Shown: piece by piece, positions 1 through 32,792 of the stretch
Numbering within the stretch: the stretch's first letter is position 1
Layout of the letters: each line of letters begins with the position of its first letter
Origin: a virus
Strand: one strand, 5' to 3'
DNA length: 64,000 nt
IMG/VR virus record: IMGVR_UViG_3300043137_000327
Coordinates: 1-64,000 of that record
The notes under the pieces: model-generated
The model's input: the letters and a program-made list of their open reading frames with translations, nothing else
What the model was told of the DNA's origin: nothing
Database searches by the model: none
Position numbers and translations under genes: made by a program

Positions 1-74
1 TGGTAATTAGCTCATTTGGTTAGAGCATCTCGCTGATACCGAGAAGGTGGCAGGTTCGAATCCCGCATTACCAA
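1..74 (+). tRNA. tRNA-Ile (anticodon GAT)
   Basis: Hand-folded cloverleaf: acceptor tggtaat/attacca (7 bp), D-stem gctc/gagc, anticodon stem tctcg/cgaga with loop ctGATac, T-arm gcagg-TTCGAAT-cccgc, discriminator A. Confidence 0.6.
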
Positions 75-165
75 CAAATAAGGTAATAGTTCCCAGAGTT
101 GATGTGGCCACATCCGGACTCAAAAAAAGTAAAGTTACAGATGGATGCGTAACGCCTTATTAATT

Positions 166-236
166 ACGGGTATGGTGCAATGGTAGCATACGGGTCTCCA
201 AAACCTTTGATGGAAGTTCGAATCTTTCTATCCGTG
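166..236 (+). tRNA. tRNA-Trp (anticodon CCA)
   Basis: Acceptor acgggta/tatccgt, D-stem gtgc/gcat, anticodon stem cgggt/acctt with loop ctCCAaa, T-arm ggaag-TTCGAAT-ctttc. Confidence 0.55.
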
Positions 237-241
237 CTAAT

Positions 242-313
242 AGTTCTATGGTGTAACGGATAGCACCCTTCACTACGGATGAAGAAGTTTGGGTTCGAAT
301 CCTAATAGAACTA
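242..313 (+). tRNA. tRNA-Arg (anticodon ACG)
   Basis: Acceptor agttcta/tagaact, anticodon stem cttca/tgaag with loop ctACGga, T-arm ttggg-TTCGAAT-cctaa. Confidence 0.55.
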
Positions 314-319
314 CATAAT

Positions 320-389
320 GGTCAGTTTGGTCGTGGAGGCCGGTGGGTCTGCAAAACTTACGGAGTTGGTTCGATTCCAACATTGACCT
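320..389 (+). tRNA. tRNA-Cys (anticodon GCA)
   Basis: Acceptor ggtcagt/attgacc (one GU), anticodon stem tgggt/actta (two GU, or 6-bp extended) with loop ctGCAaa, T-arm gttgg-TTCGATT-ccaac. D-arm is short/atypical. Confidence 0.45.
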
Positions 390-456
390 CAACCGGTGAA
401 GGATATTGGATATATCGCCCGACGTGGAGTTGGGAAAGTGGTTCGATTCCACAAAC

Positions 457-526
457 TGCATGGCTTAGTGGAAAAGAGTTATCTCTCATAAGGATGACCA
501 AATGAGTTCGAACCTCATACATGCAA
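457..526 (+). tRNA. tRNA-Met/Ile2 (anticodon CAT). D-arm atypical and boundaries uncertain
   Basis: Anticodon stem tatct/ggatg with loop ctCATaa, T-arm atgag-TTCGAAC-ctcat, acceptor tgcatgg/acatgca (6 of 7 pairs). The D-region is shorter than canonical. Confidence 0.4.
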
Positions 527-594
527 CAATGTATATTATACTATACAAAAACCTGGTATTTAGGGGTAAATGTATAATATATTATACGAAATAT

Positions 595-668
595 GGTGTT
601 TATAGTGTTAATGGTTAGCACGTCAGTTTGTGGTACTGATAGTATGGGTTCGAATCCCATTAATCACC
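595..668 (+). tRNA. tRNA-His (anticodon GTG) with G-1
   Basis: Anticodon stem tcagt/actga (perfect) with loop ttGTGgt, T-arm atggg-TTCGAAT-cccat, acceptor gtgttta/taatcac, plus an extra 5' G (595) pairing with discriminator C668 as expected for tRNA-His. Confidence 0.6.
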
Positions 669-673
669 CCAAT

Positions 674-759
674 AGAGAGTTACCCAAGTTGGTGAAGGGG
701 CCTGTTTGCTAAACAGGTAGGATGTTAAAGTCGCAAGGGTTCGAGCCCCTTACTCTCTA
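674..759 (+). tRNA. tRNA-Ser (anticodon GCT), class II
   Basis: Acceptor agagagt/actctct (perfect), anticodon stem cctgt/acagg with loop ttGCTaa, long variable arm (about 19 nt), T-arm aaggg-TTCGAGC-ccctt. Confidence 0.6.
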
Positions 760-768
760 CTTAAAATT

Positions 769-843
769 GCCCGTATGGCGGAATTGGAATACGCAGTGGC
801 TTTAGACACCACACAATTGAAGGTTCGAGTCCTTCTATGGGTA
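769..843 (+). tRNA. tRNA with anticodon TAG (Leu-decoding) but a class-I short variable arm. The anticodon loop could also be read as 9 nt
   Basis: Acceptor gcccgta/tatgggt (all paired, 2 GU), D-stem gcg/cgc, anticodon stem gtggc/accac (C-A mismatch at loop end) with loop ttTAGac, 6-nt variable region, T-arm gaagg-TTCGAGT-ccttc, discriminator A. Confidence 0.4.
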
Positions 844-1310
844 CAAAATTTATAACTATGGTTTACAAAAAACTAACAGGTGAAAGTGTAGAATTGGAAG
901 AATATATTACAAATTATATAGATATGTATGATGATGTTGATATACTTATTGGATGTGATTCACAAAATCGTGCTGATAAAACGACATACGCCGTAGTAGT
1001 TGCTTTGTATCATAGAGGTAAAGGAGCACACGTATTATTCAGAAGATGGCAAACTAAAAAAGAATGGACTCGTTCTACTCGTTTGTTAAATGAAGTATGG
1101 TACGCTATTGAAACGGCAGAGATGATGAAGGAAGCAGGTATTCCGAAACCTCGTTGGATTGATGTGGATTTGAACCCAGACCCTAGATATAAATCTAACG
1201 AAGTATTCAGACAGGCGGTTGGTATGGTTGAAGGTATGGGATATGAAGTTAGATATAAAACATTAGGTCCAATCGCAACATATGCGGCTGACCATTTAGT
1301 AAAAATGTAA
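837..1310 (+). CDS. hypothetical protein, possibly RNase H-like (YkuK/DUF458-like)
   Basis: 157-aa ORF. The segment ILIGCDSQNRADKTTYAVVVALYHRGKGAHVLF resembles the GTDSQ core of the DUF458 RNase H-fold family. The start overlaps the 3' end of the preceding tRNA by a few nt. Confidence 0.35.
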   Translation: MGTKFITMVYKKLTGESVELEEYITNYIDMYDDVDILIGCDSQNRADKTTYAVVVALYHRGKGAHVLFRRWQTKKEWTRSTRLLNEVWYAIETAEMMKEAGIPKPRWIDVDLNPDPRYKSNEVFRQAVGMVEGMGYEVRYKTLGPIATYAADHLVKM

Positions 1311-1387
1311 AAAAATATTAGGAAATTTGAAAAACTTTCTGTATATTTGTATAAGTTCTTTGATAGATAGGTATTTAAAAAGCAAAC

Positions 1388-1461
1388 GCTCCGTTCGTCT
1401 AATTGGTTAGGACACTCCCCTTTCACGGGAGAGCTTACGGGTTCGAGCCCCGTACGGAGTA
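1388..1461 (+). tRNA. tRNA-Glu (anticodon TTC)
   Basis: Acceptor gctccgt/acggagt (G1-U72), D-stem gtct/ggac, anticodon stem ctccc/gggag with loop ctTTCac, T-arm acggg-TTCGAGC-cccgt. Confidence 0.55.
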
Positions 1462-1559
1462 CAAAAGATTAATGTAAATCGCCTATGTGGGTGAAACTAA
1501 TTCCTCGTTTGGGGAAAAGAAGATGTGATTTCTTTAATAGGTGTAGTTAATCTTTAATT

Positions 1560-1632
1560 GCCTCCGTAGCTCATTTGGTAGAGCAGCTGATTTGTAATCA
1601 GCAGGTGGTTGGTTCGAGCCCGACCGGAGGCT
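1560..1632 (+). tRNA. tRNA-Thr (anticodon TGT)
   Basis: Acceptor gcctccg/cggaggc (perfect), D-arm tagctcatttggtagagca, anticodon stem gctga/tcagc with loop ttTGTaa, T-arm gttgg-TTCGAGC-ccgac. Confidence 0.65.
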
Positions 1633-1636
1633 CAAT

Positions 1637-1710
1637 GGGATGTTAGTAGAGTTGGTTACAATGTCGCCCTGTCACGGCGAAGGTCACGGGTTCGAGTCCC
1701 GTACATCCCG
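1637..1710 (+). tRNA. tRNA-Asp (anticodon GTC)
   Basis: Acceptor gggatgt/acatccc (perfect), anticodon stem tcgcc/ggcga with loop ctGTCac, T-arm acggg-TTCGAGT-cccgt, discriminator G. Confidence 0.6.
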
Positions 1711-1715
1711 CATAT

Positions 1716-1789
<74 letters not shown>

Positions 1790-1807
1790 CTAACAAAAGA
1801 AAAGCGT

Positions 1808-2245
1808 ATGAGCATATTAATCAGAACTTTATTTTGTATCTTTGTAATGATGCCAGCAAGTGTTAGTAAATTTGATGGTAGAAAGTTTGAGGTTGAAAAG
1901 GAAAAAGAGGAAGTTGTTGTAAAGAAACAAAATGCACTTATAGTAACGGCAACAACCTATACTGTAAGTGAATCAGAAACCGATAGTTCACCAACCATAA
2001 CGGCTAGTGGATTTAGGTTAAGTAAAACAAATCCTAAAAAGCACAGGGTAATAGCTGTGAGTAGAGATTTAAAAAAGAAACTTAGATTTGGAGATAAGGT
2101 AAGAGTTACCGGAATTGGAAAACTAAGTGGTGTATATGTAGTTAGAGATTTGATGCATAGTAGGTGGAGAAAGAAAATTGATATTTTAATCAATCCGAAA
2201 GATAAACAAACTAAGTTTCATAAAGTTAAACTTTACATATTATAA
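1808..2245 (+). CDS. 3D-domain protein (MltA-like cell-wall-binding/hydrolase-associated domain) with N-terminal signal/TM segment
   Basis: 145-aa ORF with a hydrophobic N-terminus. ATTYTVSESETDSSPTITASGFRL...HRVIAVSRDL...FGDKVRV...GVYVVRDLMHSRWRKKIDIL matches the 3D (Asp-rich) domain pattern ATAYT..G.TASG...IAVDP...G.Y.A.DTG..IDI. Confidence 0.5.
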   Translation: MSILIRTLFCIFVMMPASVSKFDGRKFEVEKEKEEVVVKKQNALIVTATTYTVSESETDSSPTITASGFRLSKTNPKKHRVIAVSRDLKKKLRFGDKVRVTGIGKLSGVYVVRDLMHSRWRKKIDILINPKDKQTKFHKVKLYIL

Positions 2246-2248
2246 GTT

Positions 2249-2333
2249 GCCTCGGTGGTGTAATGGTAGCCACGAAGGACTTAAAATCCTTTGAACCGAA
2301 AGGTTCGTGCCAGTTCGAGTCTGGCCCGAGGTA
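2249..2333 (+). tRNA. tRNA-Leu (anticodon TAA), class II
   Basis: Acceptor gcctcgg/ccgaggt, anticodon stem aagga/tcctt with loop ctTAAaa, long variable arm tgaaccgaaaggttcg, T-arm gccag-TTCGAGT-ctggc, discriminator A. Confidence 0.6.
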
Positions 2334-2445
2334 CAATGTAATGATTCGAAAGAATAGCGGAACAGATGCTAAGAATGAAATGGAAACTTTTGAAACTCGT
2401 ACAAAGGAGTGGATTCGAAACAAACCGCACAGACATTACATTAAT

Positions 2446-2519
2446 GGGGATATAGCTCAGTTGGCTAGAGCATCTGCCTTGCACGTAGAGGGTCGTGGGT
2501 TCGAATCCCTCTATCTCCA
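2446..2519 (+). tRNA. tRNA-Ala (anticodon TGC)
   Basis: Acceptor ggggata/tatctcc with a G3-U70 pair (the Ala identity element), D-arm tagctcagttggctagagc, anticodon stem tctgc/gtaga with loop ctTGCac, T-arm gtggg-TTCGAAT-ccctc. Confidence 0.65.
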
Positions 2520-2571
2520 CTATCGTTGAAATAAACGATATTAGATTTTATCGTTAGATTAAACGATAATT

Positions 2572-2648
2572 GGACTTGTAGCTCAGTCGGTTAGAGCGCC
2601 GCACTCATAATGCGTAGGTCATAGGTTCGAGCCCTATCTGGTCCACCA
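2572..2648 (+). tRNA. tRNA-Met/Ile2 (anticodon CAT) with encoded 3' CCA
   Basis: Acceptor ggacttg/ctggtcc (one T-T mismatch), D-arm tagctcagtcggttagagc, anticodon stem ccgca/tgcgt with loop ctCATaa, T-arm atagg-TTCGAGC-cctat, discriminator A followed by CCA. Confidence 0.55.
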
Positions 2649-2706
2649 TAGTTAGAATAGTTTATCTTTTTTAAGTATTCTAATATTTATATAAAAGAAA
2701 AAAACT

Positions 2707-3108
2707 ATGAAAGGTAATTGTATAAATTGTGACAAAGAGTTTGATTATATGCCATCTCAAAAAAATGGTAAGTATTGTTCAAACAAATGTCAGGGTGAGT
2801 ACTCTGTAAAACAAAGATTTGTAAAGGGTAGTGTTTGGCATCATAATATGGCAATCTATCTTAAACGAATTAGAGGAAATAAATGTGAGGATTGTGGAAT
2901 CACAGAGTGGTTGGGACATGAAATTAGTATGCATGTAGACCATATTGATGGTGATAGAACAAATAATACTTATGATAATTTAAGAATACTTTGTCCTAAT
3001 TGCCATTCACAAACTCCAACATTCGCTAGTAGAAATGTTTCAGCCGAAGGTAAAAAGAAAATGGCTGAATCCGCTAGAAAGAATGGTAGGGGTCACAAGC
3101 GAAAGTAG
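2707..3108 (+). CDS. HNH homing-type endonuclease
   Basis: 133-aa ORF. Cys-rich N-terminus (CINCDKEF...CSNKC) and the HNH core HVDHIDGDRTNNTYDNLRILCPNCHS. Embedded in the tRNA array. The stop overlaps the 5' end of tRNA-Gly. Confidence 0.8.
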   Translation: MKGNCINCDKEFDYMPSQKNGKYCSNKCQGEYSVKQRFVKGSVWHHNMAIYLKRIRGNKCEDCGITEWLGHEISMHVDHIDGDRTNNTYDNLRILCPNCHSQTPTFASRNVSAEGKKKMAESARKNGRGHKRK

Positions 3109-3171
3109 CTCATTTGGTAGAGCATCACCTTGCCAAGGTGAGGGTAGCCGGTTCGAGCCCGGTCTTTCGCT
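3099..3171 (+). tRNA. tRNA-Gly (anticodon GCC)
   Basis: Acceptor gcgaaag/ctttcgc (perfect), D-arm tagctcatttggtagagc, anticodon stem tcacc/ggtga with loop ttGCCaa, T-arm gccgg-TTCGAGC-ccggt. Confidence 0.65.
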
Positions 3172-3227
3172 CAAATGGGCTTTAGTGGGAAGCCGCAAGA
3201 ACGATAGATGTTGTTCATCCACTAAAT

Positions 3228-3299
3228 GCGAGTATAGCACAATGGTTAGTGTTCCGGCCTTCCAAGTCGGAGATTTCGGTTCGAGTCCGAATACTCGCT
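3228..3299 (+). tRNA. tRNA-Gly (anticodon TCC)
   Basis: Acceptor gcgagta/tactcgc (perfect), D-stem gcac/gtgt, anticodon stem ccggc/gtcgg with loop ctTCCaa, T-arm ttcgg-TTCGAGT-ccgaa. Confidence 0.65.
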
Positions 3300-3380
3300 C
3301 AACTCAAGTACCCATACCGCCAACGATGGGCTAAGTTAGATACAATTCCGTATTGCGGGGAGTAGAATGCTTGAGAATTT

Positions 3381-3451
3381 TGCCTGATGGTGTAGCGGTA
3401 GCACAACTGTTTTTGGTGCAGTTAGGGTAGGTTCGAATCCTGCTCGGGTAA
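3381..3451 (+). tRNA. tRNA-Gln (anticodon TTG)
   Basis: Acceptor tgcctga/tcgggta (U1-A72 as in bacterial tRNA-Gln, two GU), D-stem gtgt/gcac, anticodon stem actgt/gcagt with loop ttTTGgt, T-arm gtagg-TTCGAAT-cctgc. Confidence 0.5.
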
Positions 3452-3461
3452 CAACAAAAAA

Positions 3462-3494
3462 CCTCACAATTATTTGGCAATGTGGGGTTTTTTT
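3462..3494 (+). terminator. Rho-independent terminator hairpin (cctcaca/tgtgggg + T7) closing the tRNA array
   Basis: 7-bp stem with an 11-nt loop followed by TTTTTTT. The loop and T-run overlap the -33/-7 elements of the next promoter. Confidence 0.6.
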
Positions 3495-3504
3495 CGTATA
3501 TTTA
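3473..3504 (+). promoter_or_regulatory. Bacteroidetes-type promoter, class A (TTTGGCAAT...TTTCGTATATTTA)
   Basis: TTTG at 3473-3476 and TAnnTTTA at 3497-3504 with about 20-bp spacing. Member of the repeated about 30-bp promoter family. Confidence 0.55.
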
Positions 3505-3522: not shown

Positions 3523-4179
3523 ATGATAAACAATTTAAAGTTAATAAAGCCGTTACTAAACTTCGAAACGAAGGGTGACTTCTATATGCTATATGTTTTT
3601 AAACGTAAGAAGGACCAGCCTGAAGGTGAAAGGGATAATCATCAATCGGTAAGAACTATTAAAACTTATTGTATTGAGAGTATTGACCATTTAGAACGTA
3701 GATGGGATGAAGTAATTCAGATGTGTGAGATGTTTAAAGCAAGAGCATATATACACATTCAGAAACAAAATCATTTTGATGTAAGTTTGAATATGATGGT
3801 TACTCTCGCACAACGAATACAAGATGGTAACACAAATCAAAAAGGTTTATTCGATTCAGTAGTTGGTCAAATCAAAACGCAAGAGAAGAGATGGATTATT
3901 GATGTAGATGATATAAAAGATGCAAGTCCAATTATGATGGCGTATATTGATAATGAATGTAAACCATACGGTTCTAAAATTGAATCAATAATTCCAACAA
4001 AAAGTGGTCATCATTTGATTACTAAGAAATTTGATGTAATGGAATTTAAAAAAAAATATCCAAACATCGATATTCAGAAAAAGAATCCAACATTATTATA
4101 TTATCCAAATTCATTGGATTTAGAAAATAATAATTTGGAAACTATTAAAAAATTAAGAGATACTTTAAAAGAAGAATAA
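3523..4179 (+). CDS. hypothetical protein (first gene of the RNA-repair operon)
   Basis: 218-aa ORF immediately downstream of a class A promoter. No motif recognised confidently. Confidence 0.5.
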   Translation: MINNLKLIKPLLNFETKGDFYMLYVFKRKKDQPEGERDNHQSVRTIKTYCIESIDHLERRWDEVIQMCEMFKARAYIHIQKQNHFDVSLNMMVTLAQRIQDGNTNQKGLFDSVVGQIKTQEKRWIIDVDDIKDASPIMMAYIDNECKPYGSKIESIIPTKSGHHLITKKFDVMEFKKKYPNIDIQKKNPTLLYYPNSLDLENNNLETIKKLRDTLKEE

Positions 4180-4742
4180 TGAAAGTAATATTTTTAGACC
4201 ACGATGGTGTTATATGTTTATCCACAGAGTGGGGAGGTAGATTTAAGAAACAAAGAGAAGCAGGACGTAAACTAAGTCAATCAGTTGGTTCATTGCCAGT
4301 TCTTTCTCGATTTGATAATTTTAATAAGAAAGCAATCAATATACTAAATGAAATATTGGAAGAAACTAACGCTGAAATTGTTATCTCATCTGATTGGAAA
4401 CGATGGGCAAGTGTTGAGGAGATGGGTGAATATTATGAATCACAGGGAATCAAAAAGAAACCAATCGCCTTTACGAAAAACTTAGGTGATTGTGATGTAC
4501 CCGAAAACTTCATATGGTCACGACAATGGGATTTAGAACAATCTCGCTCATTGGAGATACTTCAATATCTTAGAGATAACAATGATATAACACATTGGGT
4601 TTCTATTGATGATTTGGATATGGGTAAGAATGGTGAGGATTGGAAAAACTGGGGGTTAGATAACTTCGTATTAACGCCTAAAAGTAGAGAAGGTATTAAA
4701 CAAAGTGGAATAAAAGAAAAGATTATAGAATTCTTAAAATAA
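4179..4742 (+). CDS. HAD-superfamily phosphatase (Pnkp 3'-phosphatase-like)
   Basis: 187-aa ORF. N-terminal HAD motif I FLDHDGVI (DxDG). Sits beside the kinase and ligase genes. Start overlaps the previous stop. Confidence 0.5.
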   Translation: MKVIFLDHDGVICLSTEWGGRFKKQREAGRKLSQSVGSLPVLSRFDNFNKKAINILNEILEETNAEIVISSDWKRWASVEEMGEYYESQGIKKKPIAFTKNLGDCDVPENFIWSRQWDLEQSRSLEILQYLRDNNDITHWVSIDDLDMGKNGEDWKNWGLDNFVLTPKSREGIKQSGIKEKIIEFLK

Positions 4743-4747
4743 GAGTT

Positions 4748-5401
4748 ATGAAAATAGTATTAGAAAAAGGACAGAAGTTATGGTTTACAAGTGATACACA
4801 CTACAACCATGCTAATATTTGTTCCGCTACAACAAAGTGGACAGACCCGGTGACTTGTAGAGAATTCAAAACATTAGAACATATGAACGCTCACCTCGTT
4901 GGTAACATCAACGAAATGGTCGGACAGGATGATATTCTATTTCACTTAGGTGATTGGAGTTTTGGTGGATTTGAAAGTATCGAACAATTCAGAAATCAAA
5001 TTGTTTGTAAAAACATTCACATCATTACAGGCAACCACGACCATCACATTGAAAACAACAGAGAAGGTTGTCAATCGCTTTTTGCTTCGGTAAACAAATA
5101 CCTAAACTTAAATGTGAAATTTCCAAATGGAAGTGGTGGATATGATGATATACGATTTGCTCTAATGCACTTTCCAATAGCAAGTTGGGATAATATGGCG
5201 AGAGGCGCTATCCATTTGCATGGGCACGTTCACTTTGAACCTAGGTTACGAATTGGTGCTGGAAAAATGATGGATGTGGGTGTGGATGGAAACGGATTGT
5301 ACCCAATTCAAATGAGTGAAGTATTGAGATTAATGAGAAACCAACCAATCAAAAGTATGTTCATATTTGACCATCACGAGATTGTGGAGAATTATAAGTA
5401 A
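4748..5401 (+). CDS. calcineurin-like metallophosphoesterase
   Basis: 217-aa ORF with the motifs FTSDTHYNH, LFHLGDWSFGG, ITGNHDHH and HLHGHVHF (metallophosphoesterase signature blocks). Confidence 0.7.
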   Translation: MKIVLEKGQKLWFTSDTHYNHANICSATTKWTDPVTCREFKTLEHMNAHLVGNINEMVGQDDILFHLGDWSFGGFESIEQFRNQIVCKNIHIITGNHDHHIENNREGCQSLFASVNKYLNLNVKFPNGSGGYDDIRFALMHFPIASWDNMARGAIHLHGHVHFEPRLRIGAGKMMDVGVDGNGLYPIQMSEVLRLMRNQPIKSMFIFDHHEIVENYK

Positions 5402-5402
5402 A

Positions 5403-5585
5403 ATGAAAAAGTGGATTTGTAAAATAATAGGTCACAAATACTCATATAATTTTGGGTGGATGCCCAATAAGTGTATATGTAATAGGTGTGGTATGAAATG
5501 GAAAAGCATTAGTAACCCATATTACATACCGGGTGAATCAAATCCATTAATAACCGATATGCATATTTGGATAGAAGATAAATAA
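5403..5585 (+). CDS. small Cys-rich (putative zinc-ribbon) protein
   Basis: 60-aa ORF MKKWICKIIGHKY...CICNRCGMKW starting at the ATG just after the previous stop. The ORF-track start at 5367 overlaps the upstream gene. Confidence 0.35.
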   Translation: MKKWICKIIGHKYSYNFGWMPNKCICNRCGMKWKSISNPYYIPGESNPLITDMHIWIEDK

Positions 5586-5591
5586 TAAATT

Positions 5592-6008
5592 ATGATACCA
5601 AAAATATTAACATTAGTAAGAGGGTTGCCAGGAAGTGGTAAAACGACATTCGCAAATACTATCACAAATGAATTTTCAGTATGTGAAGCTGATAAGTTTT
5701 TCTATGATAAGGAGGGAAACTATAACTTTGATAGTAATAAATTAACTGCTGCACATAAATGGTGTAGAGATGAGGTAGAAATGCGAATGAAAGATAATCA
5801 ACTTAATGAACAATTCTATCCGCATATTGTAGTATCCAATACATTCACCAAACGATGGGAAATGGATACATATTTTGGATTAGCAAAGCAATATGGATAT
5901 AGAGTTCATTCAATCATTGTTGAAAATAGACACGATGGTGATAATGTACATAATGTGCCAGAAGAAAAAATAAAACAAATGGCTAATAGATTTGAAATTC
6001 AATTATAA
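5592..6008 (+). CDS. pnk: polynucleotide 5'-kinase (T4 Pnk kinase-domain-like P-loop kinase)
   Basis: 138-aa ORF. Walker A [35 protein letters not shown] parallels T4 Pnkp [39 protein letters not shown] parallels T4 VPIDVLRSMYKSM. Confidence 0.75.
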   Translation: [138 protein letters not shown]

Positions 6009-6013
6009 AAGAA

Positions 6014-7159
6014 ATGGAAAATAATAATTCAGTTTGCTATGTAGCAACAATTAATGAAATCAAACCAATTGAAGGAGCTGATAACATTGAGTTAGCAGTA
6101 GTTGGTGGTTGGAATTGTATCACTAAAAAAGGTGAGCAAAAAATAGGTGATGAAGTTATCATCGCTACAACCGATGCCGTAATTCCGGAATCATTATCGG
6201 ATGAGATGGGAGTTACTAGCTATCTTCGTAAAGGTGGTAGAGTTAGGACTGTGAAATTAAGAGGTGTATATTCAGAATGTTTAATCATTCCAAATAAATT
6301 CTTACATGGTAGAAGTACTATCGGAGATTGGGATTTGAAAGAAGGTAGTGATTGTATGCATATTTTTGGTATTGTTAAATTTGAACCACCCGTAAAAATG
6401 GTTCAATTGGCAAGTGGTAAGAAAATCAGATACCAAGATAATCCAAACTTTCACGTATATTATAAGTTTCCAAACTTAAAGAATGTACCTGGAATGTTTA
6501 CTGAAGAAGATACGGTTGAAATCACTCGTAAAATTCACGGAACAAATGCCAGATATGGTATTGTTAGGAAACTTAAATTATCAGTTTGGCATAATATTAA
6601 GAAGTTCTTTGGATTTGGTAACAAATGGGATGAGTTCGAATTCGTAGTTGGTTCGCATAATGTTGAGAAAGGTTCAGATTCTAATGGATTCTACGATACA
6701 AACGTATGGTATGAAATCGATAAGAAATATGGTATCAAACAAAAGTTATGGGATTATGTTAAGAATGAAGATATGGATGTAGTTATCGGAGATGGTATCA
6801 CTTTATATGGTGAGATTTACGGAGCTGGAATCCAAAAGGGATACGATTATGGGTTGAGTGAGATTGAGTTCGTAGGATTCGATGTAAAGGAGGATGGTGA
6901 GTATTTAGACCCAATCAACTCTAAACTTTTAATCAAAGATATTTTGGAATTACCATATGTAGAGATTTTACACTTTGGTAGGTGGTCACAAGAAGTACAA
7001 GATAAGTATGTATTCAATAATTTCATTGAAGGTACTAAAGTGCCGGAGGAGGGTATTGTAATCAAACACCAATCTAAAGGTAGAGAGAAGATAGCAAAGG
7101 TAATAAATCCTGATTATTTAATTTTCGCTGAAAAACACAATGTTGGCGATTCTCATTAA
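6014..7159 (+). CDS. rnl: RNA ligase (T4 Rnl2-like nucleotidyltransferase) with N-terminal tRNA-binding OB-fold domain
   Basis: 381-aa ORF. N-terminus VATINEIKPIEGADNIELAVVGGWNCITKKGEQKIGDEVII resembles the Myf/EMAP-type tRNA-binding domain. Ligase motif I RKIHGTN (K-x-H-G), motif IIIa YGEIYGAGIQKG (T4 Rnl2 FGEFAGPGIQKN), motif IV PEEGIVIKH. Confidence 0.75.
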   Translation: MENNNSVCYVATINEIKPIEGADNIELAVVGGWNCITKKGEQKIGDEVIIATTDAVIPESLSDEMGVTSYLRKGGRVRTVKLRGVYSECLIIPNKFLHGRSTIGDWDLKEGSDCMHIFGIVKFEPPVKMVQLASGKKIRYQDNPNFHVYYKFPNLKNVPGMFTEEDTVEITRKIHGTNARYGIVRKLKLSVWHNIKKFFGFGNKWDEFEFVVGSHNVEKGSDSNGFYDTNVWYEIDKKYGIKQKLWDYVKNEDMDVVIGDGITLYGEIYGAGIQKGYDYGLSEIEFVGFDVKEDGEYLDPINSKLLIKDILELPYVEILHFGRWSQEVQDKYVFNNFIEGTKVPEEGIVIKHQSKGREKIAKVINPDYLIFAEKHNVGDSH

Positions 7160-7165
7160 AATAAA

Positions 7166-7197
7166 TTTGGAAAATCCAAATTAATATAGTATATTTG
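7166..7197 (+). promoter_or_regulatory. Bacteroidetes-type promoter, class B (AATTTGGAAAA...TATATTTG)
   Basis: TTTG 7166-7169 and TATATTTG 7190-7197, spacing 20. This places the first ORF-track ATG (7195) inside the promoter. Confidence 0.5.
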
Positions 7198-8862: not shown

Positions 8863-9612
8863 ATGATAAAAGCAGGAAGATACGATTTAAACGAAGCATC
8901 GTTAGGTAGAATATATCAGCACGTTGTTTCTAATCCTAAAATGAAAAATTGGGGAGTCGTAACAGCAAGTAGAGGTGAATTAACATCTGCTGAAAATAAG
9001 CAACGAAACAAAGAATTAGAAGCTGATTTGCGTAAAATGGGATATGGATTTGTTCACGTAGATGGTATGTGGCAAGAATGTAGAAAGCCTGATACCGAAT
9101 ATAAGGATTGTCCGGATGATATGAAAGTTCCAACGCAAGAGAAATCGTTATTCATACCTAATATATCAAAAGAAGATGTTCAATCATTGGGTAAGAAGTA
9201 TGAGCAAGATAGTGTATTATTTGCAGATGAAGAAACTAAAGCAAAAGGTGAGGCAACATTCATCGATTCAAAATCAGGTGAAGCATTTAATATTGGAAAG
9301 TTCTCACCTGGAAAAGTAGCACAAGGATATAGTAAATTGAAAGGTGGGCAAGTATTTACATTTGAACCAAAAGATGAACCACAAAAAGTTGATGAACCAA
9401 AAGTTCAAACAAAAGCTGAGCCGGGTTCTCAAAAGATGGTAGCAAATCCGACACAATTGAAATCACTTTTACCAAAAGGTATAGCTGATAAGATGGTTAA
9501 GAACCCTGAAACGGGCAAAATGATTAAAGTAAAATCCGCTTTGAAGTATGATAAAGAATCGCCAGTATATAAAGCAACTGTTGCTATGGTTAAACAGGCT
9601 TCAAAAAAGTAG
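8863..9612 (+). CDS. hypothetical protein with Lys-rich C-terminus
   Basis: 249-aa ORF followed by a terminator. Confidence 0.5.
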   Translation: MIKAGRYDLNEASLGRIYQHVVSNPKMKNWGVVTASRGELTSAENKQRNKELEADLRKMGYGFVHVDGMWQECRKPDTEYKDCPDDMKVPTQEKSLFIPNISKEDVQSLGKKYEQDSVLFADEETKAKGEATFIDSKSGEAFNIGKFSPGKVAQGYSKLKGGQVFTFEPKDEPQKVDEPKVQTKAEPGSQKMVANPTQLKSLLPKGIADKMVKNPETGKMIKVKSALKYDKESPVYKATVAMVKQASKK

Positions 9613-9637: not shown

Positions 9638-9664
9638 AGACTTACATATGTAGGTCTTTTTTTA
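9638..9664 (+). terminator. Rho-independent terminator (agacttac-atat-gtaggtct + T7)
   Basis: 8-bp stem (one GU), a 4-nt loop, then TTTTTTT at 9657-9663. Confidence 0.7.
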
Positions 9665-9712
9665 TGCCTAATGTGTTGATAATCAATACATTAAAAAATA
9701 TTTTAATAAATG

Positions 9713-9744
9713 TTTGGCAATACCGATTATTTTTCGTATATTGT
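9713..9744 (+). promoter_or_regulatory. Bacteroidetes-type promoter, class A
   Basis: TTTGGCAATACCGATTATTTTTCGTATATTGT. TTTG 9713-9716, TATATTGT 9737-9744. Confidence 0.6.
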
Positions 9745-12156: not shown

Positions 12157-12188
12157 TTTGGCAATACCGATTATATTTCGTATATTTA
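12157..12188 (+). promoter_or_regulatory. Bacteroidetes-type promoter, class A
   Basis: TTTGGCAATACCGATTATATTTCGTATATTTA. TTTG 12157-12160, TATATTTA 12181-12188. Confidence 0.6.
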
Positions 12189-14000: not shown

Positions 14001-14089
14001 ACTCATAAATTATGATGCATAGTAGTCAAATTCCTATGGAAGTTATCGTAGGAATGCCAAACGGATTAGAATTATTCTATTTAAATTAA

Positions 14090-14120
14090 TTGGTAAATTA
14101 AAAATAAATTCGTATATTTG
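14090..14120 (+). promoter_or_regulatory. Bacteroidetes-type promoter (TTGG...TATATTTG) giving a near-leaderless transcript
   Basis: TTGG 14090-14093, TATATTTG 14113-14120. The ATG at 14125 is only about 5 nt downstream. Confidence 0.45.
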
Positions 14121-15328: not shown

Positions 15329-15371
15329 GATAGTTTGGAATGGAGTAGGGGTTCGATTCCCCTACTATCTT
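15327..15371 (+). ncRNA. tRNA-like acceptor/T-arm minihelix (no D or anticodon arms)
   Basis: aagata...tatctt outer stem enclosing gtagggg-TTCGATT-cccctac (7-bp stem, canonical T-loop). Starts at the SPFH stop codon. Confidence 0.4.
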
Positions 15372-15394
15372 CAATAACATAAAATTTAAAACAA

Positions 15395-16509: not shown

Positions 16510-17055
16510 ATGAAAAATAAATCATATGATAAATTGATACTTATGGCAATTTATATTTTGTTATTAGCATGTATCACATTTTTTTCATCATGTAGTAAAG
16601 AAGATATATTTCCAAACAATAGTATTGAAATGAATATCGATACCCGTTTACCAATTGATGTGAATGGGTATTCTCATTTTAAGTTGTATTCAACTACAAC
16701 TCAAAACATCCATACAATATCAGGCTCAATTAGAATAAATGGAAGAGTGCCAGATAATCCAAGAGAGAAAGTGGAATGGGAAAGCTCTCATTATTGGACA
16801 CTGAAGCAAGGTGAGTCCATTGGTACAATATATCGTAGGACGTGGCGAGGATTGGGATGGCAAATCGTAGATAGTATTAAGGTAGTTAATCTTAAATCTG
16901 CGCAAGTACCAACTATCAACCCTATATGTTACAATTCGGCAGATGGTAGTATCAATACAGTAATAGCTCCGATGTATAATATGAAAGGGGATACGTTAAC
17001 TATTGTAGCTAAATCAAATAGATTGGCAAAAATAGTTAAAATAATACTTGATTAA
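16510..17055 (+). CDS. putative lipoprotein
   Basis: 181-aa ORF with a signal peptide and lipobox-like FFSSCSK. Confidence 0.45.
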   Translation: MKNKSYDKLILMAIYILLLACITFFSSCSKEDIFPNNSIEMNIDTRLPIDVNGYSHFKLYSTTTQNIHTISGSIRINGRVPDNPREKVEWESSHYWTLKQGESIGTIYRRTWRGLGWQIVDSIKVVNLKSAQVPTINPICYNSADGSINTVIAPMYNMKGDTLTIVAKSNRLAKIVKIILD

Positions 17056-17078
17056 TTCAAATATTTTTTGTATATTGT
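17047..17078 (+). promoter_or_regulatory. Bacteroidetes-type promoter (TTG...TATATTGT)
   Basis: TTG 17048-17050, TATATTGT 17071-17078, spacing 20. Confidence 0.4.
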
Positions 17079-20059: not shown

Positions 20060-20109
20060 ATTAGGATACTCCAATTTTTTTTACTATCTTTACATAAATC
20101 TTAAAACTT

Positions 20110-22278: not shown

Positions 22279-22310
22279 TTTGGTAATTATAAATAATTTT
22301 CATATATTTG
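22279..22310 (+). promoter_or_regulatory. Bacteroidetes-type promoter upstream of groEL
   Basis: TTTG 22279-22282, TATATTTG 22303-22310, spacing 20. Confidence 0.5.
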
Positions 22311-24004: not shown

Positions 24005-24028
24005 AAGGGGGGAATTTCCCCCCTTTTT
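24005..24028 (+). terminator. Rho-independent terminator (gggggg-aattt-cccccc + T5)
   Basis: Perfect 6-bp GC stem and T-run directly after groEL. It abuts the next promoter. Confidence 0.8.
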
Positions 24029-24029
24029 A

Positions 24030-24061
24030 TTTGGCAATATCGAATATTTTTCGTATATTTG
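24030..24061 (+). promoter_or_regulatory. Bacteroidetes-type promoter, class A, giving a leaderless mRNA
   Basis: TTTGGCAATATCGAATATTTTTCGTATATTTG. TATATTTG ends at 24061 and the ATG is at 24067. Confidence 0.55.
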
Positions 24062-24066
24062 TGTAT

Positions 24067-24300
24067 ATGAAATCAGAAAACCTAAAAAGAGAAATTAACG
24101 AAGGACATTATTTAGAATTAATGGATAGGTTATATGTGTTAGCATCCACATTACACGACCATTGTTTAGAACATCCATTAGCTGAATACGATGAAGAAAT
24201 TTACACATCCATAGAAACAGCTATTGAAGCAACCTATGATGCATATCAATTGGTAGGAAGTAAAGAATTTGAAAATGAAGATGAGAATAACGCACATTAG
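24067..24300 (+). CDS. hypothetical protein
   Basis: ORF 24031..24300 trimmed to the ATG at 24067 because 24031-24061 is the promoter. Confidence 0.4.
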   Translation: MKSENLKREINEGHYLELMDRLYVLASTLHDHCLEHPLAEYDEEIYTSIETAIEATYDAYQLVGSKEFENEDENNAH

Positions 24301-25057
24301 TGATACACATAATAAGCACAACCAACTCAATGGTTTATTGCCAGGCGGTGATTTGCTTATTCATAGTGGTGATATATCTTCATTGGGTAGGAAGAGAGAA
24401 GTTGAATCATTCATCAAATGGTTTAATGATATCGATAACTACACTCATAAAGTATTCATAGCAGGTAATCACGATATGTCTTTTGATTCTGAACAATTAA
24501 TGCAGACTAAAATTGATTACTTTGATGGTAAACGTTCTGTATGGGATACCGAAGGTAATGAGCACATTCCATCCGAAGGTAAGCCAGATTGGTTAAAGGA
24601 ATTATTAGGGATTCACTTACGCCCAAATGTTTCATATTTAGAAAATTCAGATATAACAATTGATGGGTTGAAAGTATGGGGTTCACCAATCACACCATCA
24701 TTTGGATATGGTTGGGCGTTCAACAAAGATAGGGGATATGATATAAACGAAGTATGGAATCTTATTCCAGATGATACTAAGATTGTTATTACTCACGGAC
24801 CTATTCATAGCTATTGTGATAGAACTGATAGAGGTGGATTGAATGTTGGATGCGAACAACTATACCATAAATTGAATGAAGTTAAACCTCAATTACATTT
24901 TTCAGGCCACATTCACGAGGCATATGGATATAGGAATACTAAATGGGGATACGCATTTAATGGATGTAATTGCGATTTGAGTTATTTGGTAAATAACAAA
25001 CCAATGACTTTTGATTATGATTTTGTAAAAAACGATATAGTAGAATTTTTAATGTAA
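24269..25057 (+). CDS. calcineurin-like metallophosphoesterase (true start probably the ATG at 24281)
   Basis: Motifs ITHISDTHNKHN, LLIHSGDISSLGR, FIAGNHDMSF, ITHGPIH and FSGHIHEAYG. Confidence 0.65.
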   Translation: MKMKMRITHISDTHNKHNQLNGLLPGGDLLIHSGDISSLGRKREVESFIKWFNDIDNYTHKVFIAGNHDMSFDSEQLMQTKIDYFDGKRSVWDTEGNEHIPSEGKPDWLKELLGIHLRPNVSYLENSDITIDGLKVWGSPITPSFGYGWAFNKDRGYDINEVWNLIPDDTKIVITHGPIHSYCDRTDRGGLNVGCEQLYHKLNEVKPQLHFSGHIHEAYGYRNTKWGYAFNGCNCDLSYLVNNKPMTFDYDFVKNDIVEFLM

Positions 25058-25350
25058 TGAAAAAAATAATGATAGTGCTAATGTTATTGGGAGTGATAGC
25101 ATTGGAAGCAAAGCCAAAGTATAGAATAGAAACTTGGGTTTACAATGGCGAAAGATATTATCAACCACAGCAAAGAGTGTGGTATAAAACTAATTATTTT
25201 TATTTACCATTTAAAATATGGAAAGCCGGACAATATCCATTAAAGAGTAAAAATGAAGCTGAGTGGATTATTCAAAATTGGGAAAATGAATACCAAGCAA
25301 AAAGAGATTATAAACATTCTCAATTTATAGAAATAGATGAAAAAAGATAA
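25057..25350 (+). CDS. hypothetical secreted protein (signal peptide)
   Basis: 97-aa ORF with a hydrophobic N-terminal leader. Confidence 0.4.
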   Translation: MKKIMIVLMLLGVIALEAKPKYRIETWVYNGERYYQPQQRVWYKTNYFYLPFKIWKAGQYPLKSKNEAEWIIQNWENEYQAKRDYKHSQFIEIDEKR

Positions 25351-25816
25351 AATATATTTGTATTTGGATGATGTTCGAATACCAACAGAAGGAAAGTGGG
25401 AAGTGGTTAAAAATTATGATGAGTTTGTAGCTCACATTAATTTGAATGGATTGGAAAACTATGAACTTATTTCATTAGACCACGATTTAGGAGAAGCTGC
25501 TATGATTGAATATTATAGTAATGTTAAGCCAAATTATGAATTAGATTATAAAAGGATTGATGAAAAGACTGGTATGGATTGTGCAAGATTTTTAGTTGCA
25601 GAAGCTATGAATAAGAAGATACAATTACCAACGGTATATGTTCATTCCGCTAATCCAATTGGTTCGGCTAATATGATGGGATATATTAACAACTATTTCA
25701 GAAATAATAAATTGCCAGAAACGTGTACGAAAGTAAATATAGAGCACACTTATACTGAATTTTTATCTGAAGAGGAAAGGAATAGCCGATATAATATTAT
25801 GAAACAATATAAATAA
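25337..25816 (+). CDS. hypothetical protein
   Basis: 159-aa ORF. Confidence 0.45.
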   Translation: MKKDKIYLYLDDVRIPTEGKWEVVKNYDEFVAHINLNGLENYELISLDHDLGEAAMIEYYSNVKPNYELDYKRIDEKTGMDCARFLVAEAMNKKIQLPTVYVHSANPIGSANMMGYINNYFRNNKLPETCTKVNIEHTYTEFLSEEERNSRYNIMKQYK

Positions 25817-26620: not shown

Positions 26621-26652
26621 TTTGGAAAATTGAAAAAGTTTTAGTAAATTTA
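26621..26652 (+). promoter_or_regulatory. Bacteroidetes-type promoter, class B
   Basis: TTTG 26621-26624, TAAATTTA 26645-26652. Followed by a rare canonical SD, AAAGGAGG, at 26672-26679. Confidence 0.4.
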
Positions 26653-26685
26653 CAATATAACAAACAAAAAAGAAAGGAGGACACG

Positions 26686-26862
26686 ATGGCTTTATTTAAA
26701 GAACTTACAGAGTTAAAAGAAAAATTAAAGTATTACGAAAATATGACACCTGTAAATAATATGGGTAAGTGGAGTAGAAGTGTTGCCATTGAAAGTTATA
26801 CTAAAAAGATTTCTAAATTAGAAAACGAAATTAAAAAATTAAAAGAAAATGGCAAAAAGTAA
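26686..26862 (+). CDS. hypothetical small coiled-coil protein (58 aa)
   Basis: Unannotated ORF MALFKELTELKEKLKYYENMTP... preceded by AAAGGAGG 7 nt upstream. Confidence 0.4.
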   Translation: MALFKELTELKEKLKYYENMTPVNNMGKWSRSVAIESYTKKISKLENEIKKLKENGKK

Positions 26863-31820: not shown

Positions 31821-32180
31821 ATGAATAACACAGCCATAGTATGGATGATAGTAACGCTAGTATGGATAGTATCCCTATATAAGATAGTAGGTATCCATAA
31901 GATAGTAAACGTATTAACTATGTTTAAAACAAAAGCGTATTGGAATCCCTTATACAATAAGATAGAGGCGATAAGCTGGATTAGTAAGATAGGAATCATA
32001 GTACCGGGCTTAGTATGGGGAAAAGAAATTTGGTACTTACACATCGTAACCCTGATATCGAGCTCCTTACTGATATGGGTAAAGGCTGAGAAAGGATTAC
32101 CTACGTTAATAGTATTCAATACGATATGGATAGGGATAAGCAGTTGGGTATTGGTTAAGAATATCTTATTACATTTATAA
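31821..32180 (+). CDS. hypothetical integral membrane protein
   Basis: 119-aa ORF with four hydrophobic helices (W-rich). Confidence 0.45.
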   Translation: MNNTAIVWMIVTLVWIVSLYKIVGIHKIVNVLTMFKTKAYWNPLYNKIEAISWISKIGIIVPGLVWGKEIWYLHIVTLISSSLLIWVKAEKGLPTLIVFNTIWIGISSWVLVKNILLHL

Positions 32181-32757: not shown

Positions 32758-32761
32758 CCCC

Positions 32762-32792
32762 TTGGATATATGGACTTTTTTTCGTATCTTTA
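32762..32792 (+). promoter_or_regulatory. Bacteroidetes-type promoter with conserved +1 block (TCGTATCTTTATAGGGTGG)
   Basis: TTGG 32762-32765, TATCTTTA 32785-32792. The same TCGTATCTTTnnAGGGTGG block recurs at 49340-49360. It leads into about 220 nt with no ORF. Confidence 0.4.

Follow-up and report, generated by a model that had tools for sequence, protein, structure and literature searches.

The window analysed here is a stretch of 64,000 nucleotides from a virus (IMG/VR virus record IMGVR_UViG_3300043137_000327, positions 1 to 64,000). Its flagged site, at 9713-9744 on the plus strand, carries the -7 box TATATTGT, a TAnnTTGY variant, and lies 58 nt downstream of a terminator hairpin (9639-9656) and ahead of ATG 9772, which starts a 724-aa protein. 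The site is a member of a family of 20 similar sites in the window, which are given below as predicted promoters together with two neighbouring hairpins.

1318-1349, + strand: predicted promoter, TTAGG ... TATATTTG, weight-matrix score 24.1 bits, 46 nt upstream of tRNA-Glu (1388); absent from an earlier note's list
3473-3504, + strand: predicted promoter, TTTGG ... TATATTTA, upstream of an RNA-repair-like cluster starting at 3523; its -33 element lies within the loop of the terminator hairpin 3463-3486
7166-7197, + strand: predicted promoter, TTTGG ... TATATTTG; next ATG at 7225
9713-9744, + strand: predicted class A promoter (flagged site), TTTGGCAATACCGA ... CGTATATTGT; predicted transcription start site (TSS) at about 9749
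12157-12188, + strand: predicted class A promoter, upstream of AAA ATPase gene 12239; conserved leader TATGTAATAACAATGAGAG
14089-14120, + strand: predicted promoter, TTGG ... TATATTTG; ATG 14125 at TA+12, leaderless candidate
17047-17078, + strand: predicted promoter, CTTGA ... TATATTGT; ATTGT-N3-ACAAT palindrome across the predicted TSS
20061-20092, + strand: predicted promoter, TTAGG ... TATCTTTA; absent from the earlier list
22279-22310, + strand: predicted promoter, upstream of GroEL gene 22349
24030-24061, + strand: predicted class A promoter, 10 nt past terminator 24007-24021; ATG 24067 at TA+13, leaderless candidate
26621-26652, + strand: predicted promoter, TTTGG ... TAAATTTA; a rare AGGAGG lies ahead of ATG 26686
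32761-32792, + strand: predicted promoter, CTTGG ... TATCTTTA, in a long non-coding region; G-rich sequence downstream, with no ORF for 228 nt
32920-32951, + strand: predicted promoter, TTAGG ... TATCTTTA, 69 nt upstream of ATG 33013; the weakest site (leave-one-out 14.3 bits)
34497-34528, + strand: predicted class A promoter; ATG 34537 at TA+16, with a second in-frame ATG 24 nt further
35430-35461, + strand: predicted class A promoter, TATCTTTA, 71 nt upstream of ATG 35525
40226-40257, + strand: predicted promoter, TATATTGT; ATG 40263 at TA+13, leaderless candidate
47712-47743, + strand: predicted promoter, TATATTTG; ATG 47749 at TA+13, leaderless candidate
48073-48104, + strand: predicted promoter, TATATTTG, 86 nt upstream of ATG 48183
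49320-49351, + strand: predicted promoter, GTTGG ... TATCTTTG; overlaps the stop codon of the Hsp20 gene
50679-50710, + strand: predicted promoter, TATATTTG, upstream of endonuclease gene 50736
9639-9666, + strand: predicted intrinsic terminator, 7-bp stem plus T run, ending the unit upstream of the flagged promoter
49356-49383, + strand: hairpin plus T run immediately 3' of the predicted promoter at 49321; conserved

A bipartite motif and its place among the genes

The earlier note had counted about 18 intergenic sites sharing TTTG and a downstream TAnnTTT(G/A), and inspection of the sequence located the motif at all 17 of the coordinates it listed. The pattern TTGG-N19-TAnnTT occurs 18 times on the plus strand and never on the minus strand, compared with about 3 matches per strand in shuffled sequence; two of the 18 (10507 and 25659) lie within genes and are chance matches. 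Scanning the window with a weight matrix derived from its own motif sites added 1319, 20062 and 32921, each with TAGG in place of TTGG, which brought the family to 20. Leave-one-out scores of these sites range from 14 to 44 bits, and the best scores outside the family are 9.9 bits on the plus strand and 13.2 bits on the minus strand. Every one of the 20 is on the plus (gene) strand and is intergenic or overlaps the final 7 nt of a gene; coding sequence makes up 89.4% of the window and intergenic sequence 10.6%. The bipartite motif is not equally frequent inside coding regions, where equal frequency would, by the earlier note, have spoken against its reading. This specificity is limited to the bipartite form: the bare octamer TAHHTTTG, with 50 matches on the plus strand (34 of them coding) and 56 on the minus strand, was dropped as a criterion because coding DNA and the opposite strand carry it just as often. 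Five intergenic -7 boxes (7832, 8836, 36158, 44076 and 48913) have no -33 element at any spacing and were excluded from the count.

The distance between the two boxes is rigid. All 20 sites share the spacing TTTG-N20-TA (equal to TTGG-N19-TA), which corrects the range of 19-20 bp given earlier, and half-site matrices allowed to vary in spacing returned 20 plus-strand matches at the canonical spacing and none at -3 to +4. In that scan 17048, which has TTGA at -33, fell below the half-site cut-off and 17267 was among the 20 matches; the latter lies inside a gene, has TATATCGA as its -7 box and is probably a chance match. TTGG is present in 16 of the 20 sites and TTTG in 13, while the -7 box reads TAnnTTT in 17 and strictly TAnnTTTG in nine, with A at position -5 in eight. 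The form TAnnTTT(G/A), which had been ascribed to the earlier sites, does not hold for three of them (9714, 17048 and 40227), which have TATATTGT.

Hairpins containing GC pairs and followed by a T run were found at 3463-3486, 9639-9656, 24007-24021 and 49356-49376, and terminators adjoin the upstream side of 9714 and 24031, with one overlapping 3474. The hairpin at 49356-49376, with its T7 run, is kept in 19 of 20 relatives despite differing stems. Lying directly behind the previous gene or a terminator, the sites would cut the early and metabolic part of the genome, including a tRNA cluster, into short units. The last family member is at 50679, and the block of baseplate genes from 50.7 to 64 kb, which has no family promoters, is presumably expressed otherwise, from late promoters or by read-through; nothing obvious as a late-promoter motif was seen by eye in the gaps of this block. 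An Rfam scan of the window returned tRNAs only, with nothing credible in the non-coding region 32150-33050.

Proposed promoter architecture, relatives and the probable host phylum

The primary sigma factor of Bacteroidota (sigma-ABfr) reads TTTG at -33 and TAnnTTTG at -7 (Bayley 2000; Vingadassalom 2005; Chen 2007, as cited in PMC6847099), and genome-wide promoter maps of the phylum are available (PMC9723704, PMC7366714). In host promoters the -7 element spans -12 to -5 (PMC9723704); its T-12, A-11, T-8, T-7, T-6 and G-5 are near-invariant, G is avoided at -10 and -9, and transcription starts 4-5 nt beyond the box (PMC6847099). The layout of the phage sites fits this consensus in both elements. 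In a clade-wide logo of 313 unique sites, T-12, A-11, T-8 and T-7 are each present in 100% and T-6 and G-5 each in 65%, and none of the 20 window sites has G at -10 or -9, in agreement with the TAHHTTTG of PMC6847099. The same -7 positions, a TTG about 20 nt upstream, an AT-rich spacer with T-rich tracts near -18 and a predicted TSS 4-5 nt beyond the box are thus common to both. The phage family differs from the host promoters in its additional conserved C-14 G-13 and A at -37, in its rigid spacing, in a G-5 that is nearly invariant in the host but is found in 45% of window sites and 65% clade-wide, and in a nearly invariant TTTGG that in host promoter sets is weak or barely detectable (PMC6847099). 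Because its -33 element is far stronger than in host promoters, the phage consensus is not simply the host average.

Geometry alone has no power to discriminate here, since a consensus scan also fits class A, a subclass considered below, to sigma-70 as TTGGCA-17-TATATT, at 10 of 12 consensus positions with a 17-bp spacer; this match stems from the common TTG ... TA ... T frame. The first 50,000 nt of T4, a control rich in sigma-70 promoters, gave no matrix match above 8 bits. With the restriction to gene strand and gaps, the rigid spacing, T-8 and T-7 in all 313 sites and the empty T4 control, the earlier proposal of Bacteroidota -33/-7 promoters has held up well. We consider it highly probable that the motif marks some 20 promoters of a Bacteroidota phage, which would be read by the host RNA polymerase with its primary sigma (sigma-ABfr type). 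In the scheme that we infer from the sequence for initiation, TSS position, polymerase and sigma usage and infection timing, TTTGG at -36 to -32 would be the -33 element contacted by sigma region 4, the T-rich stretch with CG (-19 to -13) and TATATTT(G/A) (-12 to -5) would form the -7 element contacted by region 2, and transcription would start about 12 nt past the T of TA.

The phage is a large, low-GC, T4-like myophage of a widespread uncultured clade with contigs of up to 287 kb. Relatives were located through proteins and through the motif itself; megablast of 11 kb against cultured phages found no match. Among cultured phages the nearest relative is Flavobacterium phage immuto (host Flavobacterium sp. 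LMO8), which has 17 plus-strand and 3 minus-strand matches above 10 bits, nearly none of them in structural modules. Across 1.93 Mb of uncultured relatives there are 479 plus-strand versus 22 minus-strand matches above 12 bits and 393 versus 2 above 20 bits, counts that include orthologous sites and are not independent, and such scans favour look-alikes because the matrix derives from sites of the window itself. Alignments with relatives confine conservation to the promoter block, with diverging flanks, and among orthologues of the 47749 gene the spacer sequences change while both boxes and their distance stay fixed.

Several observations bear on the host. The extended consensus ATTTGG-N14-TTTCGTATATTTG matches, among the matches listed, 111 Bacteroidota among 120 bacterial genomes (92%), at loci that are not phage DNA. 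Shine-Dalgarno (SD) motifs precede 7 of 104 genes, where 9.9 would be expected at random, and the region before the start is rich in A at -13 to -11, with A at -3, as described for F. johnsoniae (PMC6847099). These features, together with a Flavobacterium phage relative that has the same family, agree with the host clue given earlier, at the level of the phylum, and support a Bacteroidota host, in which use of the motif by the host polymerase is predicted. GroEL was considered as a host marker and is uninformative, its matches being scattered over many phage groups. The phylum call for this large clade of uncultured big phages comes from sequence only and draws on four independent lines of evidence.

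Class A sites and candidate leaderless starts

The class A sites form a genuine and conserved subclass, which recurs in five or more diverged lineages. At the sequence level it is defined by an extended -33 box (TTGGCAATAY, -35 to -26), by the lack of G-5 in its -7 box and by a conserved stretch of about 25 nt (...GTAATAA..ATGAGAG) that would be the first to be transcribed from the predicted TSS. The class had been introduced as five sites near-identical over about 30 bp; a distinct subclass stands, although six coordinates were given for it and one of them, 3473, matches at the motif ends only. With statistics inflated by orthologous copies, G at -5 occurs in 2 of 19 class A sites versus 204 of 309 others (Fisher 1.9e-6), the strict -7 box in 1 of 19 versus 139 of 309, and a downstream TGAGAG in 6 of 19 versus 4 of 309. 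The class-specific GCAATAY box co-occurs with a non-canonical -7 box; the conserved block extends from about -35 to +25, with flanks that cannot be aligned. Sites 9714 and 12158 are nearly identical over 30 bp, a match that narrows to about 9 + 10 bp when relatives are compared, so part of it may reflect recent copying. The three sites with TATATTGT (9714, 17048 and 40227) have in common an ATTGT-N3/4-ACAAT palindrome over the predicted TSS, and F. psychrophilum has TAnnTTGY as a motif class of its own (SM5; PMC9723704). Two further candidate features were rejected: the ATG of an ATGTAA start-stop mini-ORF at the predicted class A transcription start is AAG in several copies, and GAGAG in the class A leaders, considered as an SD equivalent, lies at distances from the ATG that vary from 2 to about 50 nt.

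These properties raise the question of whether class A, and perhaps also the TATATTGT subclass, needs a phage factor that binds GCAATAYSGA or the initial transcribed sequence, and so forms a separate temporal class in the manner of T4 middle promoters with MotA/AsiA. The discreteness of the class across lineages, the scarcity of the host-critical G-5 and of the strict -7 box, the conserved TGAGAG and surrounding block, and the palindrome and SM5 parallel of the TATATTGT sites speak for such a factor, which we nevertheless regard as unlikely. Pfam and PHROGs searches of 79 window proteins, a set that covers a minority of the small ORFs and part of the genome, revealed no sigma factor or sigma-like protein, RNA polymerase, DNA-binding protein or obvious transcription regulator, and the window yielded no homologue of MotA/AsiA or gp55. 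Extended conservation is, moreover, a known property of ordinary phage early promoters, as in T4. The class keeps the perfect TTTGG and the canonical spacing, and so may be just a strong promoter that needs no helper; the probable recent copying and the inflated statistics noted above weigh in the same direction. If a factor did exist, the Bacteroidota sigma-A polymerase would be diverted to class A by a phage protein, in what would be the first switch resembling sigma appropriation to be described for this type of sigma.

Among the promoters predicted for the host polymerase, several lie so close to a gene that its mRNA would start at or beside the AUG, given that four to five of the 20 have an ATG at TA+12, +13 or +16. 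The window ATGs 14125, 24067, 40263 and 47749 are at TA+12 or TA+13, which agrees with the distance of 4-6 nt after the -7 box reported for them. Over the clade, TA-to-ATG distances form a bimodal distribution that peaks sharply at 11-13 nt: an ORF-opening ATG falls at TA+11-13 in 78 of 341 unique sites (23%) and at 14-20 in 6. Of 29 orthologues of the 47749 gene, 25 retain the spacing of 11-13 with a varying spacer sequence; the start of the 24275 phosphoesterase lies at TA+11 or +12 in the orthologues of nine lineages, and four annotated immuto CDSs begin at TA+11 or +12. A promoter TA sharply positioned about 12 nt before the start codon is the diagnostic by which Zheng et al. (2011; PMC3160421) recognized leaderless genes, and the phage sites display the same fixed distance and sharp peak. 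The start-codon peak and its conservation in orthologues lend indirect support to the leaderless mRNAs implied by the earlier note, which are predicted here for four window genes.

The candidate leaderless share, some 20-23% of promoters in the phage clade, compares with 3.7-5.5% of mRNAs in the host phylum (PMC7366714, PMC9723704), and predicted leaders longer than 10 nt make up 87% in F. johnsoniae (PMC6847099). Leaderless mRNAs are thus suggested to be several-fold commoner in the clade's phages than in their hosts, which is a testable statement about translation in a phylum that does without SD pairing. The combined proposition, that class A is a second, phage-controlled promoter class and that about one-fifth of the clade's units are routed through leaderless mRNAs, appears distinctly improbable to us; if it were true, leaderless routing would serve to secure translation where the host does not use SD pairing.

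Remaining alternatives and known systems

A further possibility is that the repeats are not promoters but elements for protein binding, recombination or replication, or selfish elements, or that they are promoters for an RNA polymerase or sigma factor of the phage itself. The promoter reading is drawn from the sequence, the motif is conserved beyond host promoters with their weak -33 element (PMC6847099), and large phages frequently encode their own transcription machinery. The conserved positions are, however, exactly those that the host sigma reads, and the extended consensus is single-copy in many Bacteroidota chromosomes without phage genes, among the matches listed. The sites invariably point the same way as the genes, start codons cluster at the distance that a TSS would predict, spacers drift between boxes held at a fixed distance, and no RNA polymerase or sigma domain emerged from the 79 proteins searched. 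We therefore judge any such origin very improbable.

Ordinary sigma-70-type promoters of a low-GC host outside Bacteroidota, resembling TAnnTTTG through AT richness, are extremely unlikely: the class A score of 10/12, a TTG-N20-TA geometry equal to -35/-10 and closest baseplate homologues that include a phage recorded on Microcystis would fit them, but T-8 is universal at a position for which sigma-70 favours A, conservation extends past the hexamer to T-6 and G-5, the matrix is silent across a 50-kb stretch of early and middle genes of T4, the genome matches and start contexts point to Bacteroidota, and both immuto and the "Microcystis" phage have the same promoter type, the latter with a bS21 gene as well. 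The host of this last phage is probably a member of Bacteroidota instead, as judged from these sequence features.

T4 has many short early units with near-consensus host-type promoters that are more conserved than the host's own, and its structural genes lack them. The phage described here, for which host-polymerase promoters remain the preferred reading, resembles T4 in being a T4-like myophage with many short units, conserved host-type promoters and structural genes without them, and possibly in a second promoter class that might need a phage activator; it differs in the predicted sigma-ABfr rather than sigma-70 specificity, its matrix finding 0 sites in T4 1-50 kb. That Bacteroidota phages have host-type promoters is expected and already reported, and current understanding is not overturned. 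In the Bacteroides fragilis phage Bf12P1 (PMC13139388, 2026), early, middle and late units were likewise assigned promoters by intergenic position and -7/-33 elements of the TTTG type. Bf12P1 is a much smaller phage of another host order, and its prediction is backed by single-cell RNA read density, whereas that for the present phage is backed by sequence; Bf12P1 is not known to have a promoter subclass or a leaderless enrichment. With about 20 near-consensus promoters predicted in the window and more than 300 clade-wide, and a -33 element far clearer than in host promoter sets, the family could be used to define what the Bacteroidota primary sigma reads and could supply strong parts for the genetics of Flavobacteriia and Bacteroides.

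Predicted promoter sites in the window and their specificity

The bipartite motif TTTG-N20-TA was present at every coordinate of the earlier note, and a weight matrix made from the sites yielded 20 family members, adding 1319, 20062 and 32921 to the 17 already listed (sites are named by their start, with a possible 1-nt offset, so that 9713 and 9714 are the same). TTGG-N19-TAnnTT had 18 + strand occurrences and none on the − strand, where about three per strand would be expected. Family sites scored 14-44 bits in leave-one-out, and the best non-family scores were 9.9 bits (+ strand) and 13.2 bits (− strand). Measured from the preceding stop codon, all 20 sites start within the range from 7 nt upstream to 366 nt downstream; coding sequence takes up 89.4% of the window. 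The refuting condition of the earlier note, that the motif be as frequent within genes, does not apply to the bipartite motif; it applies only to the bare octamer TAHHTTTG, which was unspecific, with 34 of its 50 + strand copies within genes and 56 copies on the − strand. When half-sites were scored apart at variable distance, 20 + strand matches shared a single spacing, and shifts of −3 to +4 yielded none (the 20 include 17267, a probable chance match, and 17048 lies below the cut-off); the spacing is fixed, not 19-20 as first described. The flagged site (9713-9744), read earlier as TAnnTTT(G/A), is actually TATATTGT, and class A, the near-identical subclass presented as five sites, had six coordinates (3473, 9713, 12157, 24030, 34497 and 35430). 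The promoter-family finding itself is correct and well supported.

The window is a low-GC (~32%) portion of a large phage genome whose genes here all lie on the + strand. It encodes GroEL, an AAA ATPase, a carbamoyltransferase, a baseplate wedge protein, an RNA ligase and further RNA-repair-like proteins, plus 19 tRNA genes (ARAGORN), 17 of them within the first 3.5 kb. The stretch 50.7-64 kb, where the baseplate genes are, contains no family member. Promoter 1318-1349 sits 46 nt upstream of tRNA-Glu (1388), within the 17-tRNA cluster (1-3452), and relatives (L001, L002) have a promoter of the same type ahead of tRNA genes. Terminators lie 58 nt before 9714 and 10 nt before 24031, and a third overlaps 3474: within 3463-3504, the loop of this hairpin (CTCACA ... 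TGTGGG) holds the −33 TTTGG, and its T run also serves as the T-rich spacer, so that terminator and promoter overlap compactly where the tRNA cluster ends.

Probable promoter type and host

The conserved positions of the sites coincide with the published Bacteroidota primary-sigma promoter, as the earlier note had proposed. That promoter has TTTG around −33 (PMC7366714, PMC6847099), a −7 element TAnnTTTG at −12 to −5 (PMC9723704) with T-12, A-11, T-8, T-7, T-6 and G-5 almost invariant, no G at −10 or −9, and 4-5 nt from the −7 element to the start site (PMC6847099). The logo of 313 unique clade sites reads A-37, T-36, T-35, T-34, G-33, G-32, a T-rich stretch from −19 to −15, C-14, G-13, and T-12, A-11, T-10, A-9, T-8, T-7, T-6, G-5, with T-8 and T-7 at 100%. 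Class A also matches TTGACA-17-TATAAT at 10 of 12 positions, because the TTG ... TA frame is common to both, but the invariant T-8 and the conserved −6 and −5 are no sigma-70 features, and the first 50 kb of T4, of similar GC and with abundant early and middle promoters of the sigma-70 type, gave no matrix match above 8 bits. On every sequence criterion testable, the family consists of Bacteroidota primary-sigma promoters, polymerase use and start sites being predicted.

The same signal extends to relatives. Megablast with 11 kb of the window gave no close nucleotide match among cultured phages; the baseplate protein shares 39% identity with its counterpart in vB_FspM_immuto, a 160-kb phage of Flavobacterium sp. 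LMO8, and is about equally near an uncultured 484-kb phage and 'Microcystis phage' Mel-JY01. Searches of viral contigs recovered 135 related loci, on contigs of up to 287 kb, which places the window in a clade that is widespread and uncultured. Over 1.93 Mb from uncultured relatives, + and − strand matches numbered 479 and 22 above 12 bits, and 393 and 2 above 20 bits. Alignments of orthologous and paralogous sites retain the promoter block, while flanking intergenic DNA is unalignable. Immuto shows this geometry in a variant form, AGTTGC ... TTCNTATATTTAG, and 17 + against 3 − strand matches above 10 bits, which cluster among small early-type genes and are almost lacking from structural modules. 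Many short early units, near-consensus host-type promoters and structural genes without them recall T4.

Four independent lines (promoter type, cultured relative, consensus scan and start context) point to a Bacteroidota host, at phylum level only, upholding the proposed host clue. The closest cultured relative, immuto, infects Flavobacterium. The extended consensus ATTTGG-N14-TTTCGTATATTTG, searched with one genome per species, matched at least 120 loci; 111 of the 120 matches listed are titled Bacteroidota (Kapaibacterium, checked separately, is counted among them). The matches listed include Prevotella, Bacteroides, Alistipes, Chitinophagaceae, Sphingobacterium, Seonamhaeicola, Schleiferiaceae, Vicingus and Kapaibacterium, with no phage genes among their bacterial loci. 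Shine-Dalgarno sequences are unused (GGAG/GAGG/AGGA in 7 of 104 window genes versus 9.9 at random), and A is enriched at −13 to −11 (0.67-0.70) and −3 (0.61), the Shine-Dalgarno-free, A-rich pattern of F. johnsoniae (PMC6847099). ATG 26686 is preceded by a near-perfect Shine-Dalgarno, AAAGGAGGACACG (26665-26688), rare among window genes.

Mel-JY01 (L260-L261; PP395634.1, 1-100000) has six + and no − strand matches above 12 bits, GACTTGCATACGTTGAAAAGATTTCGTAAATTTGT three times among them, and an annotated ribosomal protein bS21 gene. With Bacteroidota-type promoters despite a cyanobacterium as recorded host, its host assignment may be worth a second look.

The family is of a known type and no surprise. 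Promoters of this kind had earlier been predicted in a B. fragilis phage, where expression data back them (PMC13139388). New here are the clade, a clear −33 element, the subclass structure and a high, conserved share of leaderless arrangements; the family can serve in assigning hosts and as a collection of promoters.

Predicted leaderless starts

The proposal of leaderless starts is likewise supported, though indirectly. Counting from the T of the −7 element's TA, the ATG stands at TA+12 at 14125 and at TA+13 at 24067, 40263 and 47749, so that its A coincides with the expected start site or adjoins it. For 341 unique clade sites, the spacing between TA and the first ATG that opens an ORF of 40 codons or more is bimodal, with 78 (23%) at 11-13 nt, only six at 14-20 nt and a wide spread of leadered cases beginning at 21 nt. 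Four annotated immuto genes begin at TA+11 or +12. In 25 of 29 distinct orthologues of the 47749 gene (46-91% protein identity), a promoter is kept whose TA lies 11-13 nt from the ATG, with freely varying spacer sequence, and nine lineages place the start of their 24275 phosphoesterase orthologue at TA+11 or +12. Such a fixed TA-to-ATG distance is accepted as the mark of leaderless genes in sequence data (PMC3160421), and we infer that mRNAs of the clade's TA+11 to +13 genes are leaderless. Their predicted share is several-fold above those reported for F. psychrophilum (5.5%; PMC9723704) and B. thetaiotaomicron (3.7%; PMC7366714), of the host phylum.

Class A and neighbouring regions

Class A is a real subclass, as the earlier note had partly recognised, but its reported 30-bp near-identity narrows to about 9 + 10 fixed bp across relatives; with so few fixed positions, the near-identity of 9714 and 12158 probably reflects recent copying in part. 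Besides those of the window, sites starting TTGGCARTA are present in five or more diverged relatives.

Class A against other sites (328 unique cores, orthologues included and hence not independent)
G at −5: class A 2/19, other sites 204/309 (Fisher p 1.9e-6)
Strict TAHHTTTG: class A 1/19, other sites 139/309
TGAGAG within the first 35 predicted transcribed nt: class A 6/19, other sites 4/309 (Fisher p 3e-6)

The conserved block spans about −35 to +25 (TTGGCAATAY ... TTTCGTATATTTAC TATGTAATAA..ATGAGAG). A second downstream variant, TATATTGTRTAACAATTGAGAG, common to 9714, 17048 and sites in two relatives, has an ATTGT-N3/4-ACAAT palindrome lying across the predicted start. In F. psychrophilum, TAnnTTGY is a motif class of its own (PMC9723704). 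Pfam or PHROGs searches with 79 proteins of the window turned up no candidate regulator. Class A may depend on a phage factor or have a distinct timing, but this is rather unlikely.

Class A promoters precede both RNA-repair-like sets, one of a HAD_SAK_2 protein, metallophosphatase, AAA_33 kinase-like protein and RNA ligase (3523-7159), the other of a metallophosphoesterase and a cyclic-phosphate-processing receiver domain protein (cREC_REC; 24275-25816). Immediately upstream of the flagged promoter lies a gene for an S-adenosylmethionine lyase family protein (8863-9612; PF23780); such lyases are a typical early anti-restriction function, which fits an early-gene neighbourhood. Intergenic 15329-15394 (GTAGGGGTTCGATTCCCCTAC) resembles a tRNA T-arm and part of the acceptor stem, and may be a tRNA remnant, with no tRNA call by ARAGORN or Rfam.

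Promoter 49321 is directly followed by a 10-bp hairpin and T7 run (49320-49383), the hairpin starting 2-4 nt ahead of the predicted start site. Promoter, hairpin and T run are kept in 19 of 20 relatives (among L061-L136) with differing stems and compensatory changes in 7 of 10 pairs; the hairpin may be the upstream Hsp20 gene's terminator overlapping the next promoter, a promoter-proximal attenuator or a tiny RNA. Positions 32180-33013 (~830 nt; GC above the surroundings) lack a convincing ORF or Rfam match and hold promoters 32762 and 32921 and two perfect TTATCCACA nonamers (32559-32567, 32749-32757), the DnaA-box consensus; the region could be replication-origin-like or a non-coding RNA region. 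AGGGTGG(A/T)AG begins the sequence right after promoters 32762 and 49321 (32793-32890; 49352-49360), and the 228 ORF-free nt after 32762, with a folding energy of −10.3 kcal/mol over the first 50 nt, may represent a small RNA.
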